Positions 24,204 through 59,316 of a DNA stretch of 64,000 nucleotides are shown in pieces; position 1 is the stretch's first letter, and each line of letters begins with the position of its first letter. Source of the stretch: a virus; the IMG/VR virus record IMGVR_UViG_3300044680_000048, positions 32,001-96,000 of that record. One strand, 5' to 3'. A program made the translations under genes and the position numbers. The notes beneath the pieces are model-generated. The model did not search any database. It was not told the DNA's origin and saw only the letters and a list, made by a program, of their open reading frames with translations.

Positions 24204-24282
24204 AGTAGGGTAGGGGAGTCTGGTCGTCCCCGCAAGGCTCATAACCTTGAGATCGTGAGTTCAAATCTCACCCTTGCAACCA
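24204..24282 (+). tRNA. tRNA with CAU anticodon (Met, or Ile2 if lysidine-modified), CCA encoded
   Basis: I folded the cloverleaf by hand. The D stem is GGGG/CCCC with a GG-containing loop. The anticodon arm is CAAGG-CTCATAA-CCTTG. The variable loop is AGATC. The T arm is GTGAG-TTCAAAT-CTCAC. The acceptor stem AGTAGGG/CCTTGCA has an A1-A72 mismatch and two G-U pairs, followed by ACCA. Confidence 0.75.
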
Positions 24283-31403: not shown

Positions 31404-32916
31404 AGATATCTTGGTATGGAAGAGTATCAATTACAGCTTCTTCCCCTACTGGTAGTTTCATAGGAGTTGCCGGAGGTACTACTTCAGAAGCAACTGAGAT
31501 ATTGGGAAGAACCCTTAGAGGTTTCTTACCAGCAGTTCCACCTAGAGGAGGAAGTTTAGCTATTTCAGTTCTGGCTTCATCAACAGACATAAATCCATCC
31601 AATTTACCAATATCAACTAAGGACTTAGCCATATTCATAGTAAAGGAATTGAATCTATCCCTTGCCCGAATCTGTACGTCTTTTATTCCGGCTCTGGGAA
31701 GGATTTCAGAATTAATGAAATTATCAACTATCTTAACTACTTGATAGATAGCTTTATCAAAGATATCAGCAGCTTCATCAGCAAGAGAAGCAGCATGGTA
31801 TTGCTGATTAGCATTAGTAATAATTCCTAAACGTTCATGGGGGACACCCATTACATGAGCAACCTGTTTAGCAGCTTTATCAGAAGTTTTGTGGAAGGCT
31901 CCATCTAAGTCAGCCAGATTATTCATCTGTTTAATATCACGGGCACCCGTAAGGACTACAGTATCAAATCCGGCTCTGGCTCCAGAATGGTTTGCCCGAA
32001 GTTCATTTTCCATTTGACGGGCAAGAGCCATACTATTAGCCCCGGGAATTCCCGTAGTAGACTTATTATTATCCATAAGGATAGCCATGCCAATAAGACC
32101 GCCTTTCTGGAAGACCATATTGTTATACATAGAAGCCTGAAGATCTGCTTCTAAATCAGTCAAGAGAGTAGCCAATGGGGCATTTCCTAAATCATAATGT
32201 CTCATTGACCGGCGGTAGACACAATGCTTAAGTTGGTCCACTTCAAATATATAAGCTACAAATCCCACATAATAAATCCATTGGACAACTCTTTGTCCAT
32301 CAGGACTAAATCTTGGTTCAAGGTATTGCGGAAGAAGGATTTTAAGATCCTTAAGTCCACCCAACATATTATTTCTGGGCCAAACCCAAAAGTTACCATA
32401 AATCTTAAGGTGATCTACAAGCTCTAGACGGAGTTCATCTATCCGGAATTCCTTACAAACTCTCTTAGCTTTCTCAAAATTCTTCTCATTACCTACTAAG
32501 TAGTAACCATCAGAAGCAATTTCCCTAGAGAACTCTTCCCGGCAACACCATACAGCCCAATGGTTCTCAGCCAAGAAGGCGAAAATCCCAAAAGGGTTAG
32601 GGAATAACTGCCAGAAATTAGATCCTTGTGCCCGGAATCCATATAAATCTCCAAGCCCAAACATCCCAAAATACTTATTCTGTTGCTGTAACCCCTTACT
32701 CTCTACATAAGTCTTAGTAAAAGAAGCAGCTTCACTCTTAAATTGATTAATTAATTTAAAGGCAGTTTGTGGATCTTTATAAGTAGAGAGGGAAGAAAGT
32801 TGAGTAACTAATCCATTAATTCTACCAATAGCCGCTTTCTCTACTGGATCTGAAATTACAAGAGCTTCGGCAGCCTTCTTTAGGGCTTTCTCTTTCTTCT
32901 TTTTCTTCTTACTCAA
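31402..32916 (-). CDS. portal protein candidate (504 aa)
   Basis: The size and its position one gene downstream of the large terminase support the call. TTG start gives a poly-Lys N-terminus (MSKKKKKKEK). No motif-level confirmation is possible here. Confidence 0.5.
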   Translation of the reverse strand: MSKKKKKKEKALKKAAEALVISDPVEKAAIGRINGLVTQLSSLSTYKDPQTAFKLINQFKSEAASFTKTYVESKGLQQQNKYFGMFGLGDLYGFRAQGSNFWQLFPNPFGIFAFLAENHWAVWCCREEFSREIASDGYYLVGNEKNFEKAKRVCKEFRIDELRLELVDHLKIYGNFWVWPRNNMLGGLKDLKILLPQYLEPRFSPDGQRVVQWIYYVGFVAYIFEVDQLKHCVYRRSMRHYDLGNAPLATLLTDLEADLQASMYNNMVFQKGGLIGMAILMDNNKSTTGIPGANSMALARQMENELRANHSGARAGFDTVVLTGARDIKQMNNLADLDGAFHKTSDKAAKQVAHVMGVPHERLGIITNANQQYHAASLADEAADIFDKAIYQVVKIVDNFINSEILPRAGIKDVQIRARDRFNSFTMNMAKSLVDIGKLDGFMSVDEARTEIAKLPPLGGTAGKKPLRVLPNISVASEVVPPATPMKLPVGEEAVIDTLPYQDI

Positions 32917-33648: not shown

Positions 33649-36573
33649 TTACCAGAGACGGAAGCCCAGTCCACCTAAGAACTCCTTAAAGGATTGATTT
33701 TCCTTTCGGTCTATCTCATCTTGGATTTGTTGTTGAGCGGATCTTTGATGGCGGGAAGATTCTGTTTCATGTCCTTCATTAGTTCCCATTTGAGGAGTTT
33801 TATCTTTTCTTTCCGGCACATCCTTATATATAGTTTCTATTTCACCAGAAGGTTTTTGTTCAACTGAAACTTTATCTACAATAACAAGACCGGCGGAATC
33901 CTTCATATCCTTCAATATATTATATTGATGGTAGATGACATAGGAGAGAGCATCAGTAGGGTGAGTCATACAGTAAATTCTGTCTCTGCGGGTAGCCCGC
34001 TTAGCATTAGCATCCCCATTAGGGTCCAGTTGATCCCTGAGGGATTTATCCTTCCACTTAAGTTCTTCCAGAGATTTAATAGTATTTTCACAATTGGGGG
34101 AGATTAGAAGAAATCCATCCTCACATGCGTGGTTCATGGTATCCGTTCTTTCTTTAATGGGCATAGTATTGGTATCTGTGACCATTTCACAGAAGAAACC
34201 ATTACCTTCAAGGATTCTAATAATCTGTGCCGGACGAGTAAGTTCACGGGAAGTCTGTCCTCCCCATCCATGAGGATCACAGAAGATGAAAACTGTCTGA
34301 CCTAAATAGTCTGGCTTATATCTCCGGACAAATTCATTAGCTACGTCTACAACATTAGCTCCCCCATATGGATTATCCATAGTAGGACCAAACATTACTA
34401 TTTCATCTTTAACGGTAAATTTTCCATCTTCATATTGTCCAATGATAGAGCATTGAGGTTTAAGGTTAAAATCTAAAGCCCAGAAGTAATCCTTGGTGGG
34501 ATCAATATCCGATTTTTCTTCTAAAACATTACCTAGAAGGGTGAATTTATTGTATACATAATCGTCCCGGATATCCATGTTGGTCTTACCCTGAACATAG
34601 ATTTTAAACATAGTCTCATCATAGGTATCTAACATTCCCTGAAAGTAGTCTGCGGGAAGATGTTTATTATGCATTGACTCGGATTTGATTACCCGAGTAT
34701 ATTGTTGATCTCCGGGACAGAAGAATCTTTCTCCTTTCCACGTCCAATAGTCCTTAGAAGACTTACAGCTGGGACACTTGTAATCTAATCCATCCTTTTC
34801 CCAAGTAACCCTTTTCTGATAGGAAAGAAGACATTTAATACAAATCTGACATTGACAAGGTTTTCCTACTGATATTTCTACGGGGTGTTCAGAAGTGTCA
34901 ACTCCATCGAAGCGTTTAAATTCAAACTCTTGATTCATCCAACCGTCACGGGTTTTTTCTGGATTTGTACAAAGAATAATCTGCCTAACTTCTGGAATAT
35001 TTAAACGCAGACGGGAAAGCAAAGTATAATAAGAGTCCGCATTAGGTAGAAGGTGAGGTTCTTCTACTCCAATGATTCCTGCGTTAGCTCCAACTATTTT
35101 AATGAAATTAGTTAAATTGACTAAAGTTAAATCCGAACCATTTGCAAATCTTAAATTATTCTGTTGATCCGAGAGTCTATTAAGGATTGCCGGATGATCC
35201 CATTCCTCATCAATAGTGAACATTGTCTTAAGGGTGGGTATCAGGTTTCTTTTCAATAGAGGAGCATCCATCCCGCCAATGATAGATTTACATCCAGGAT
35301 TGCTACAAAGTGCATCGACGATGCAAGCGTCCATTCCAAAACTGTTATGAACAACAGTGAAGTCATCTAGAAGAAAAAGAGAATCTCCATCAACAGTAAA
35401 TCCATAATAGTTACCCACGCCTAGTTTTTTAATAGTAACCCCAGTAACTAAAGGATCTTTCTTTAATGGGGAAAACCTAATCTTTTTTCTTTCAATTTTC
35501 GTAGGTATTCTATAAACATCTCCATAAATACAAACTTCATAACAAGTATGTACTGCTCCAGTAGAGATATTACCAGAAGCCCTTTTTTCTACTCTGTCTC
35601 TTTTACGAAAGGTAACTCCCAGTCCTAAACTTTTTGCAAGAAACTCAATTTGTTTGGCAATTAATTCATTTTTTTGAGTTATTGTAAAAGAAGCTTTACC
35701 ACCTTTATCATTTTTAGAGACTGTTCCATCACTATCTATTAAGCCAGCCAAAAACTGTAATCTATCACTTTCGGAACTTGTTAGGTAATCATGAGGTATG
35801 TGTTTATTATTTAAAACATTAAGTTCTCTTAAGTTATTTAAAAAAGTATTACACCCTTTGGACCTTGAATTAATAGAAGTGGTTGAATAATGTAAATTGT
35901 CGCCATGATCTGTTAGTTTTAATCCTAATTTTAAGGCATACTCTTCAAAATAATTAACTACCTCAAAATCTGGACTGGTTATTCTAGTATTATTAGAATT
36001 TCCATTTCCAACCCAATAGGATAATATATAAGGATCTATTAATAATTCTTTAGTGTTAGGGAAATTAATTAGGCTACTTCGATAAATCCTATGTCTTTTT
36101 TGGTCATGTTTAGATAAGGATAAATATTCCTTTACTGATAAATTTTTTATAGTTCCATTAGGTACCTTATAAAGGTCAGTAGTTTTCAAAGAAAGAATAT
36201 GGGATTCATTACAAATAAAAGATGAACCCTTATTGGGAATTACCTTGTATAACATATCCTCTCCTTTAGCTAAAGAAAGGACATTTCTAGGCTTAGAGTC
36301 AGGTCCCATTACCTGATCTCCCTCTACCACATCTTGAACCATTTTAATGGTCCCATCATACATTAATATGGGGGTATCAATCCCAAAACACTTACCTGAA
36401 CTTTTTTAGCCGAAGCCACCCACAGAAATTAATGCATCACTGGTATGCCAGTGAGGGCGTTTATTTGGCGGCATCTTCGAAATAAAGTAGCGCTTTTGTA
36501 ATTCATTAGGACCAGGTTCAGCAGATTTAGAACCGGTAGTCCAGAGATTCACAGGTGGAATAGGCTTCGACAT
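33649..36573 (-). CDS. terL: terminase large subunit, interrupted by a P-loop intein and carrying an in-frame TAA at 36406-36408
   Basis: An AGGAGG box lies 8 nt upstream of the ATG at 36573. The N-extein MSKPIPPVNLW...ALISVGGFG-stop-KSSGK is in frame with the 904-aa track ORF. Splicing gives G-x-K-S-S-G-K-S, which matches Walker A GxxxxGK[ST]. Walker B is GIIGVEE, and LCTNP is the coupling motif. Confidence 0.75.
35344..36390 (-). mobile_element. intein with LAGLIDADG homing endonuclease (349 aa) inserted in the terL P-loop
   Basis: It starts at Cys (CFGIDTPILMYDGT). Block B is CNESHILSL. The LAGLIDADG motifs are YWVGNGNS and LAGLIDSDGTV. The C-terminal splice junction is FTVVHN followed by Ser. 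Confidence 0.85.
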
Positions 36574-36587
36574 ATATCACCTCCTAA

Positions 36588-57985: not shown

Positions 57986-58100
57986 ATGAATATATTCTTC
58001 ACTAGTGACACACACTTTTCATCATTATAACTCTATTGAATATTGTAATCGCCCATATTCTTATGAAGAAGTGGAGGAGTTAATTAGACAAAATGTTTGA
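57986..58100 (+). pseudogene. remnant of a metallophosphoesterase gene (N-terminal ~38 codons, frameshifted and truncated)
   Basis: An AAGGAGGG box precedes the start. MNIFFTSDTHF runs into a stop after a T4 run. Shifting by +1 gives HHYNSIEYCNRPYSYEEVEELIRQNV, the typical start of DxH-type phosphoesterases. The frame then ends inside the RNA ligase start. Confidence 0.55.
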
Positions 58101-59316
58101 AATGACTTTAGACGAAATATTAAATACTACTCCAGCCTTAGCTCAAGTAGTAGAAATTAAAGACGCAATTAAAACACCAGGTTCGGATAGGTTAACCTCA
58201 TATTCTCTCAAAGGAATGGGTTGGACAGTAATATCTTCTAATATCAACCAGACAGAAGAAAATTTTGGGGAACCAAGGTATAAACCGAGCGATAAAGTTA
58301 TCTATATTGCCATTGACAGTATTCTTCCGGAAAAGCTTGAAAGGTTACTCTTCCCTGAAGGTAGTAAGATTACTCTCAGTGGAGGAAGAATTAAGACTCT
58401 CAAACTTAGAGGGGCTTACTCTCAAGGAATGTTGATAAACCTGTCTGATTTCTCTAAGGTAGTAACCGATGGAGATTATGATCTAAAGCCAGGTAGGGAT
58501 GTGACTAAGGCTTTGGGAATAACTAAATTTGAACCTCCGGTATCCTCTATTCCTAAACATATGCGTGGTCAACAGAGTAAGAAAAATCCTTTATTTAAAG
58601 AGTATACAGATGTCAGACACCTTAAATACTATACAGAATCCAATATATTTGAGTTTGGAGAGTTAGTCTATGTGACAGCTAAACTTCATGGGACTTCAGC
58701 TAGATATGCATTATTACCTACTTATTGTCCAAATCTTCCCAGACTATGTTTTGGAAATTTGAAGGAGTATGGAAGCTTAATCATAAAACATGTTAAGAAA
58801 TTCTTTGGTTTCTTACCAGAATATGAATATTGTTTTGGCTCCCGCCGTTGTCAATTACAAGATAAACCGAAAGACCATAAAACCTTTTATGAGGATAATG
58901 TCTATAGGACTGTAGGAGAAGCTTATGGATTTAAGAAAATTCTCCAACCGGGAGAAGAACTCTTTGGGGAAATAGCAGGACCTGGAATCCAGAAAGGTTA
59001 TGATTACAACTTCAAAGAACATAAATTCTTCGCTTATGATGTCATGATCAATGGTCAATTCTTAGATTCTGAGAACTTTAAGAACTGGTGTGATGCTAGA
59101 GAAGTACCAAGGGTGTCGGAACTAGGAGTAATTCCTTATGATTTAGATGAGTTGACCAAACTAGCTTCTGCTAAAACATGCCTCAACGGGCAAAAGACAA
59201 GAGAAGGAGTTGTAGTTAAAAAGGTTGTGGAACAGAATCATCCAAGTTGTGGAAGAGTTTGCTTCAAACTTATAAATCCAGAATACTTACTTAAAGACCA
59301 GTCTGATTTCCACTAA
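58093..59316 (+). CDS. ATP-dependent RNA ligase, nucleotidyltransferase superfamily with an N-terminal OB-like domain (407 aa)
   Basis: Motif I is VTAKLHGTS (KxHG). Motif III is ELFGEIAGPGIQ. Motif IV is FFAYDV. Motif V is REGVVVKK. The pattern fits DraRnl/NgrRnl-type ligases as I recall them. Confidence 0.55.
   Translation: MFEMTLDEILNTTPALAQVVEIKDAIKTPGSDRLTSYSLKGMGWTVISSNINQTEENFGEPRYKPSDKVIYIAIDSILPEKLERLLFPEGSKITLSGGRIKTLKLRGAYSQGMLINLSDFSKVVTDGDYDLKPGRDVTKALGITKFEPPVSSIPKHMRGQQSKKNPLFKEYTDVRHLKYYTESNIFEFGELVYVTAKLHGTSARYALLPTYCPNLPRLCFGNLKEYGSLIIKHVKKFFGFLPEYEYCFGSRRCQLQDKPKDHKTFYEDNVYRTVGEAYGFKKILQPGEELFGEIAGPGIQKGYDYNFKEHKFFAYDVMINGQFLDSENFKNWCDAREVPRVSELGVIPYDLDELTKLASAKTCLNGQKTREGVVVKKVVEQNHPSCGRVCFKLINPEYLLKDQSDFH

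Follow-up and report, generated by a model that had tools for sequence, protein, structure and literature searches.

A stop-initiated 9-nt insertion in the terminase P-loop of a viral genome, and candidate ribosomal hopping across analogous inserts in related lineages

How can a virus make its large terminase when the gene is interrupted by an in-frame stop codon in the Walker A motif (P-loop)? The question is raised by terL on the minus strand of a 64,000-nt stretch of DNA, positions 32,001 to 96,000 of the IMG/VR virus record IMGVR_UViG_3300044680_000048. We refer to this whole stretch as the window, and all coordinates of terL and its parts are those of the window. The terL frame extends from an ATG at 36573-36571 to a stop at 33649, comprising 975 codons with a single internal stop, the ochre codon TAA. 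Alignment with homologs places this TAA at the head of a 9-nt insertion, and five related lineages carry inserts of 1 to 22 nt in the same motif that likewise open with a stop codon.

The gene is well formed on both sides of the stop. The terL ATG lies 15 nt beyond the TAA (36590-36588) that ends the upstream gene and follows a Shine-Dalgarno (SD) sequence (Table 1). When nothing is skipped, the frame after TAA reads AAA AGT TCA GGT AAG, encoding K S S G K, and then enters Cys1 of an intein. In gene calls, the window terL appears as two open reading frames (ORFs) of 55 and 904 aa, the latter starting at Met 36363 inside the intein. A preliminary description of this DNA, made from the sequence alone, had given the AGGAGG-ATG start at 36573, had placed the TAA at 36406-36408 in frame with both flanks and had noted that the ORF track begins terL at an internal Met of the intein; our recomputed frame agrees with it on each point.

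On sequence similarity, the terL extein is a divergent large terminase. The homologs match Pfam Terminase_3 from the P-loop onward, the nuclease half matches phrog_10250 at 2.2e-10, and a Phage_portal gene lies two genes downstream. The family profile GGxGSGKT was aligned, weakly (E 0.08), to the P-loop of the solved TerL structure PDB 5oea. The 55-codon part before the stop is homologous to the N-termini of more than 20 TerL relatives. Its amino acids are the same in the window and in two further contigs from the European Nucleotide Archive (ENA), L083 and L084, despite synonymous DNA changes in L083.

The stop is found in independent assemblies. A Logan assembly, two ENA assemblies and the Joint Genome Institute (JGI) source contig share the sequence GGC TAA AAA AGT and together represent three haplotypes. 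The Logan contig (SRR35360315) is identical to the window across the 8.7 kb compared. The ENA contigs ERZ25039529 contig_59018 (L083) and ERZ27263696 k141_1982442 (L084, two samples) carry the insert without the intein, reading GGC TAA AAA AGT TCA GGT (or GGA) AAG AGT TTT GGG ATG GAC. The 55-aa N-terminal ORF is also on record from the 112-kb JGI contig, Logan, L083 and L084, and since such an ORF exists only with the stop, the stop is present in all of them.

Selection acts on the interrupted gene. The spliced terL of the window and that of L083 share 94.4% nucleotide identity and differ by 84 synonymous and 8 non-synonymous codons, and the comparison with L084 yields 13 synonymous and 0 non-synonymous differences. 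The dN/dS between TAA-bearing alleles is ~0.03. This synonymous excess points to strong purifying selection on both sides of the stop, and because the insert is common to diverged haplotypes, it is older than their divergence. We therefore regard the stop as very probably real and the gene as functional and recoded in some way. Of the four explanations listed in the preliminary description, sequencing or assembly error and genome decay are effectively excluded, and readthrough or recoding are left.

Two features of the ENA alleles deserve mention here. The L083 terL has two further single-nucleotide indels and a 12-nt in-frame insertion (EVDGKN), and on the same contig single-base indels break up polA, a 301-aa gene, terL and others, as judged against the window and the Logan contig. 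Because other genes of the contig are fragmented too, the L083 indels, the in-frame insertion excepted, are most likely long-read assembly errors. All 13 differences in L084 lie downstream of the gap, from codon 60 onward, and the first 59 codons have none (L084:208-622 against window 36573-36391 plus 35343-35112). The boundary possibly records recombination at the P-loop or at the intein homing site.

What the stop does to the protein becomes clear from the family. A search with the spliced extein as query returned 26 protein homologs, the best 59% identical; some have an intein after GK and others have none. The uninterrupted homologs read S[VI]GG[YFQMVA]GS[GSA]K[ST] across the motif, and the loci L093, L094 and L095 share its core, GGxGS[GSA]K[ST]. 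In an alignment of 21 sequences, G52, G55, S56 and K58 are invariant and the length of the P-loop is constant. The closest non-conspecific relative recovered as DNA (L093, 78% identity) reads GGT TAT GGT AGC GGT AAG TCA where the window reads GGC TAA AAA AGT TCA GGT AAG. Removal of TAA AAA AGT leaves SVGGFGSGK, the exact family consensus. None of the family members compared has three extra residues or a sense-codon version of the insert. As the uninterrupted homologs show no length variation in the P-loop, these comparisons identify TAA as the first codon of a 9-nt insertion and not as a substituted Walker A residue. The preliminary description had read the P-loop as G-x-K-S-S-G-K-S with TAA in place of x, and this does not hold. 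It had also pointed to orthologs as one means of judging the x position; that comparison finds no homolog with x-K-S, and it is skipping the 9 nt that gives GGFGSGK.

The DNA of several homologs was inspected because their gene calls were N-terminally truncated. Five further lineages proved to have inserts of their own in the P-loop (Table 1). In all six lineages, the window included, the insert opens with a stop codon in the upstream frame straight after a Gly codon. The stop is TAA in the window and TAG in the other five. Deleting the insert in each of them produces S[VI]GG[FYQ]GSGK[ST] and restores the downstream frame. For each independent insertion the prior chance of an immediate stop is ~3/64, and a search guided by truncated gene calls would pick up later stops as readily as immediate ones.

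The phylogenetic spread of the inserts indicates that the insertion events are largely independent. The nearest relatives of the window terL (L093, P0001 and P0002) are uninterrupted. L086 has the intein-bearing P0019 as its nearest relative (81.5%), and P0007, also intein-bearing, is the closest to both L087 (80%) and L100 (77%). The proteins of L087 and L100 are 76% identical, and their gap sequences differ.

Table 1. Parts of terL and nearby signals in the window, and stop-initiated inserts in the P-loop of related terL genes.
Feature or lineage	Position or source	Strand	Identity to window	Length	Details
Shine-Dalgarno AGGAGG	36580..36585	minus			6 nt 5' of terL ATG 36573-36571
terL N-extein before TAA	36409..36573	minus		55 codons	frame 0; ends in HWHTSDALISVGGFG
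5' hairpin, candidate 5' stimulatory stem-loop	36437..36454	minus			UCACUGG-CAUA-CCAGUGA; ends 25 nt upstream of take-off codon
SD-like element from Val-Gly-Gly codons	36416..36421	minus			GGGUGG (GGGAGG in L083); ends 7 nt 5' of TAA
Gly55 codon, proposed take-off codon	36409..36411	minus			GGC; P site, with TAA in A site
Insert, proposed untranslated coding gap	36400..36408	minus		9 nt	TAA AAA AGT (TAAAAAAGT); in-frame ochre TAA 36408-36406
N-extein segment 2, proposed resume point	36391..36399	minus			TCA GGT AAG = Ser-Gly-Lys of Walker A
Class-1 intein with LAGLIDADG homing endonuclease (predicted)	35344..36390	minus		349 aa	Cys1...VVHN; between Walker A Lys and Ser
terL C-extein	33649..35343	minus		564 codons	Ser+1...RLW + stop; remaining ATPase domain, Cys-rich insert, nuclease domain
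L085	Logan SRR21686412		53%	9 nt, in frame	GGT (TAG TTA GGA) TCT GGG AAG; insert TAGTTAGGA
L086	Logan SRR31968552		44%	1 nt	GGG (T) AGC GGG AAA ACG
L090-L092	JGI, 7 contigs		39%	1 nt	GGC (T) AGC GGA AAA ACG
L087-L089	Logan, three runs		46%	22 nt	AGC GGT TAGGGGGCAACCCCAAACTTTC AAG ACC
L100	Logan SRR28494082		47%	17 nt	TCG GGC TAGCCTTCGGGCAAGAT AAA ACG

The TerL family appears to be small. A phmmer search with the 55-aa fragment against 1.84 billion representative proteins gave only 12 clusters at E <=0.001, of which 10 were clearly in the family. Two of the clusters are themselves N-terminal fragments, one of 59 aa ending in GSG and one of 54 aa ending in GGFG. Among 50,697 phage genomes, megablast found nothing matching the terL region; scans for related loci with a single protein recovered no TerL relative in IMG/VR, JGI metagenomes or GTDB genomes; and exact or near-exact DNA patterns around the gap had no match in IMG/VR. 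Alignment-based scans added 6 loci from JGI/ENA and a single weak one from IMG/VR, the profile search of proteins with A1 yielded just 3, and querying with the upstream gene brought up one further contig, which ends before the P-loop.

We propose, with moderate confidence, that full-length TerL is produced by programmed translational recoding, in which ribosomes hop over the 9 nt at the Gly-stop pair. The ribosome would stall with peptidyl-tRNA-Gly on GGC (36411-36409) and UAA in the A site. Some ribosomes, instead of terminating, would advance 9 nt, with the P-site tRNA re-seating over AGU. Decoding would then restart at UCA GGU AAG and yield the canonical P-loop GGFG-SGK, after which intein splicing would join Lys to Ser. 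The inserts of 1, 17 and 22 nt need forward movement of the ribosome because readthrough cannot rescue them, and parsimony with these relatives favors a hop over the 9-nt insert of the window as well. The 1-nt insert of L086 would call for a shift from GGG UAG C to GGU; GGG UAG C is a textbook shifty-stop +1 site.

Candidate stimulatory signals surround the gaps. The hairpin upstream of the window take-off codon has a predicted dG of -11.6 kcal/mol and a z of -3.98, and 0/200 shuffles fold as well. It is absent from the uninterrupted L103/L104 (the DNA of P0001 and P0002), which encode the same HWHTSD with UCU for Ser. The hairpin and the SD-like GGGUGG could act as stimulators, a role for which they are suggestive only. 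Within the longer gaps, L100 has the hairpin GCC-UUCG-GGC and L087 the hairpin GGGG-GCAA-CCCC, both starting at the G of UAG. Downstream, a 3' stimulatory structure was considered and rejected: the folds predicted there are weak (z -0.5 for the gap region of the window).

Several observations weigh against a hop. Classical bypassing pairs a take-off codon with a matched landing codon, and the landing triplets of the window, L087 and L100 mismatch their take-off codons. The last triplets of the gaps are AGT in the window (take-off GGC), GGA in L085 (take-off GGT), TTC in L087 and GAT in L100; AGU in the window can pair at 2/3 positions with a GGY-reading anticodon, and the GGA that ends the L085 gap is a Gly codon. 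The other gap lineages have no equivalent of the window 5' hairpin. The SD-like element is an unavoidable by-product of the Gly-Gly codons, and GGAGG is found in the uninterrupted relative L094 too. At 9 nt, the window gap is too short for a take-off hairpin, and none is present. Finally, the window insert is in frame, so that simple readthrough would also give a protein, and the resulting G-x-K-S-S-G-K-S still falls within the generic GxxxxGK[ST] pattern.

Readthrough is the main rival, and we consider it rather unlikely. A near-cognate tRNA (Gln, Lys or Tyr), or an ochre suppressor of phage or host, would decode UAA and give GGFG-X-K-S-SGKS, lengthening the P-loop by 3 aa. The insert length is divisible by 3, both of its flanks are in frame and the downstream frame is under selection. 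L085 would similarly produce G-x-L-G-S-G-K-S, again matching GxxxxGK[ST]. The base that follows UAA is A, and a terminase is presumably needed in small amounts, for which low efficiency could suffice. Set against this, the family has neither length variation nor a sense-codon version of the 3-aa insert, and the family-invariant Gly three residues before Lys would turn into Ser. Inserts of 1, 17 and 22 nt at the same site in relatives would gain nothing from readthrough. Among bacterial stop codons, UAA is usually considered the least prone to leak. The ~70 kb scanned (the window and the next 6 kb to its right) of the roughly 112-kb source contig yielded no suppressor tRNA. The sole tRNA in the window is Met-CAT at 24204-24282, as the preliminary description had recognized in noting a CAU anticodon and no suppressor. 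A suppressor would also read the TAA that terminates 34/61 long ORFs in the window, where it is the commonest genuine stop; reassignment of the codon was rejected on this count. There is likewise no common 3' stimulator beyond 15 nt, since intein-bearing and intein-less alleles differ there.

Less probable still is that terL is non-functional, whether in a defective phage, in a satellite that uses a helper terminase or as a recent hitch-hiking null allele, or that the TAA is an artefact. An ochre codon interrupting Walker A would be expected to be lethal, and the additional indels of L083 and the seeming lack of a canonical start in L085 could be taken as signs of decay. This explanation fares poorly against the recurrence of the same insert in three haplotypes from independent assemblies and samples, and against the low dN/dS between TAA-bearing alleles. 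The remainder of the 975-codon frame, the complete intein included, is intact, and the L083 indels, being spread over the whole contig, look like the usual errors of long-read assembly. Ordinary gene junctions account for the other same-frame ORF pairs checked in the window, each having a start codon <=7 codons from the stop, and a genome-wide tendency to interrupted genes was rejected on the same observation.

A longer hop between matched codons is highly improbable. The GGC-bound tRNA would travel to the first cognate codon, GGU, 15 nt downstream (36396-36394), and translation would resume at AAG, giving GGFG-K-S. One tRNA reads both GGC and GGU, which speaks for this route, but its product is without the invariant Ser-Gly, lies outside GxxxxGK[ST] and does not restore the family consensus as the 9-nt skip does. 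In L084 the landing codon is GGA, not GGT, a synonymous difference within the second N-extein segment.

We give equally little credence to removal of the insert at the RNA level or by another non-ribosomal route, such as excision by an endonuclease and a ligase, or editing. Unmatched landing codons in the window, L087 and L100 would find an explanation, the 17- and 22-nt inserts have compact hairpins, and the window holds an RNA ligase gene. Such removal would not account for why six inserts open with an in-frame stop after Gly, and the 1-nt and 9-nt inserts have no structure to guide an endonuclease. We know of no precedent for it. The ligase gene is a 407-aa ORF on the plus strand (58093-59316) with the RNA ligase domain PF09414 in the Logan gene table. 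Its neighborhood includes genes for a hexapeptide-repeat protein, a glycosyltransferase, a DegT aminotransferase, a dCTP deaminase/dUTPase, RecA and PD-(D/E)XK proteins. The gene is of relevance here only if the gap is removed at the RNA level.

Three further candidates were rejected outright: slippage of polymerase or ribosome on the A6 run, because the run begins only after the T of TAA and each alternative frame meets a stop in 5-14 codons (the preliminary description had rightly held that the run cannot restore the frame); internal re-initiation, as there is no start codon from TAA to the GKS codons and the first ATG comes after Walker A; and a split TerL of two polypeptides, in which the P-loop Lys would be lost in the window lineage.

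At the expected terL start of L085 (2800-2830) there is no ATG, GTG or TTG, and after a strong AAGGAGGTGA the frame opens ACC ATA GCC. The gene, known from one contig, may start at AUA, which could either limit the expression of a gap-bearing terL further or point to decay. In L090 (2979-3010), the downstream frame has its own ATG 10 codons before SGKT, giving MCCCRLAVSASGKT, in agreement with AxxxxGKT. Independent initiation of an N-terminally shortened TerL is thus a formal alternative to +1 frameshifting in L090, though not in the window.

The P-loop of this family is also a target of inteins. The window element matches Pfam Hom_end_hint (4.9e-22), Hom_end (5.9e-12) and LAGLIDADG_3 (1.1e-10) and keeps both LAGLIDADG motifs (36018-35998 and 35751-35725), with the motifs NESHIL, YWVGNGN, LAGLIDSDG and VVHN. 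Its splice residues are Cys1 (TGT, 36390-36388), the VVHN ending at 35344 and Ser+1 (AGT). By these features it is a class-1 intein with a LAGLIDADG homing endonuclease, whose splicing and cleavage are predicted, and the Cys-to-VVHN/S intein of the preliminary description is confirmed by the Pfam matches and Ser+1. The two ENA alleles lack the intein exactly at GK/S, and 8 homologs and L095 carry an intein there. In L096 (~1700-2520, FRDC01003275.1), a homologous LAGLIDADG intein occupies a second P-loop site, with FDGGNR/CHAKGTELILYDG at one junction and DFTVSHN/SGKSVAAV at the other.

The inserts lie at or beside these intein sites. The L096 site, between GGxx and SGKS, corresponds to the position of the 1-nt and 9-nt gaps in the window, L085, L086 and L090, which are 0 nt from this second site (G/SGK) and 9 nt from the GK/S site; the 17- and 22-nt gaps are 3 nt from GK/S. 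Gap-bearing lineages are sister to intein-bearing lineages. This arrangement suggests that the inserts persist by disrupting the targets of intein homing endonucleases; throttling of TerL synthesis may be an alternative or further role. We tentatively envisage the TerL P-loop DNA as an arms-race hot spot, where inserts of 1-22 nt may have arisen repeatedly as immunity to intein LAGLIDADG endonucleases and ribosomes may hop at Gly-stop, sometimes without a matched landing codon; this broader scenario is possible but doubtful. The window allele carries gap and intein together, from which it follows that the gap is no absolute barrier or that events took another order.

Some sequence resemblances connect the gaps and the inteins. 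The 8-mer TAAAAAAG of the window gap (36408-36376 region) equals the region of codons 2-4 (L-K-K) in the L095 intein, TGC TTA AAA AAG GGG (L095:~740-760). In the window intein, residues 3-4 are G-I where K-K is usual, and its start CFGID (TGT TTT GGG ATT GAT) resembles the C-extein start SFGMD (AGT TTT GGG ATG GAC) of L083/L084. These likenesses may reflect illegitimate recombination or gene conversion between intein and extein, or coincidence.

The intein has a wide distribution of its own. Relatives 35-47% identical occur in ~80 IMG/VR viral contigs (L001-L080), many labelled giant-virus metagenome-assembled genomes (GVMAG). A first IMG/VR scan, with the intein included in the query, recovered intein relatives only and no TerL relative. 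The intein family apparently spans phages and nucleocytoplasmic large DNA viruses.

A Cys-rich insert separates the ATPase and nuclease parts of TerL (34866-34702, minus strand), reading GKPCQCQICIKC...YKCPSCK...FFCPGDQQ. Its 7 Cys are invariant across the family and its similarity to RING/rubredoxin-like folds is weak. It is probably a zinc-binding module, and such a module is unusual in a large terminase.

Short non-coding blocks in a terminase gene have been described before. The terL of Streptomyces phage phiHau3 contains 10-nt inserts (7 nt in prophages) that are candidates for bypassing (Smith et al. 2013; PMC10732093). Its first junction is GWG/K, a UAA version was shown by mass spectrometry to be bypassed in E. 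coli, and a 5' stem-loop and flanking SD are the proposed stimulators (PMC10732093). The window shares with phiHau3 short blocks in an essential terL that are absent from relatives, a junction after Gly followed by a slow-to-decode codon, and, as candidate stimulators only, a 5' hairpin and an SD-like GGGUGG. The trigger in phiHau3 is a rare UUA sensed via the bldA tRNA, whereas here it is a true stop. The window insert is 9 nt and in frame, making readthrough formally possible, and TerL belongs to another, Terminase_3-like family in a genome of ~39% GC. Pfam searches with the published phiHau3 TerL fragments, aimed at placing its junction relative to Walker A, gave no match. At least 5 independent lineages are involved here, with inserts of 1-22 nt co-located with intein homing sites.

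Other parallels come from the 50-nt bypass cassette of T4 gene 60, in which a stop (UAG in most cases) comes right after the take-off Gly and the stem-loop is capped by CC-UUCG-GG, with the GNRA loops GCAA or GAAA in its place in some family members (bioRxiv 10.1101/2022.08.31.505936). The gene 60 insert shields the DNA from the MobA homing endonuclease and leaves a conserved protein motif unchanged (bioRxiv 10.1101/2022.08.31.505936). In common with gene 60, the terminase genes have Gly then stop at take-off and an insert in a highly conserved motif, and the hairpins of L100 and L087 show the very tip motifs of the gene 60 family, starting in UAG. Here the gaps are much shorter (that of the window has 9 nt), their landing codons are unmatched, unlike those of gene 60 and the mitochondrial byps, and no gene 60-like nascent-peptide signal is evident. 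The gene is terL and not a topoisomerase gene, the endonuclease is an intein-encoded LAGLIDADG enzyme in contrast to the free-standing MobA, and gap and intein coexist in the window.

L086 (GGG UAG C) and L090 (GGC UAG C) resemble the +1 shifty stop of prfB in that a shift of exactly +1 is needed where a sense codon meets a stop downstream of a G-rich element, and the window has a Gly-stop pause site too. The window differs in requiring a net +9, in having no autoregulatory logic and in an SD spacing of 7 nt against the 6 nt quoted for prfB. The TerL1-a/b inteins of mycobacteriophages lie between the invariant Walker A Lys and Ser/Thr, contain a homing endonuclease domain and must be spliced for the active site to form (PMC5050341). 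The window intein has the same P-loop position and a homing endonuclease domain; it is otherwise unremarkable, a new member in an uncharacterised TerL family, in which a second site, G/SGKS, is used by L096. Phages with stop-codon reassignment recode TAG or TGA in late genes. An in-frame stop in a late or structural gene is common to these phages and the window, which differs from them in having just one such stop, in its use of TAA as the main terminator and in the lack of a suppressor tRNA in the region scanned.

To our knowledge, only a handful of natural systems of programmed bypassing have been described: the T4 gene 60 family, the yeast mitochondrial byps and the candidate phiHau3 terminase. 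From these comparisons we class the present case as a variant of this very rare kind (programmed bypassing or a shifty-stop hop) that is convergent in one motif of an essential gene. Such terL genes are invisible in current annotations because gene callers split or truncate them. The family offers a set of at least 5 independently derived, conserved short coding gaps in one motif, with intein-containing and uninterrupted sister alleles as controls. If our reading is true, the gaps would form a graded natural series from a +1 shifty stop through short hops to hairpin-assisted bypassing, and they would probe the need for codon-anticodon re-pairing at landing. They would represent a mode of bypass distinct from that of gene 60 and would connect bypassing with protection from homing endonucleases in a further system, unrelated to the first. 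The principle of bypass as an endonuclease shield, as described for gene 60 and MobA, would then extend to inteins and terminases.

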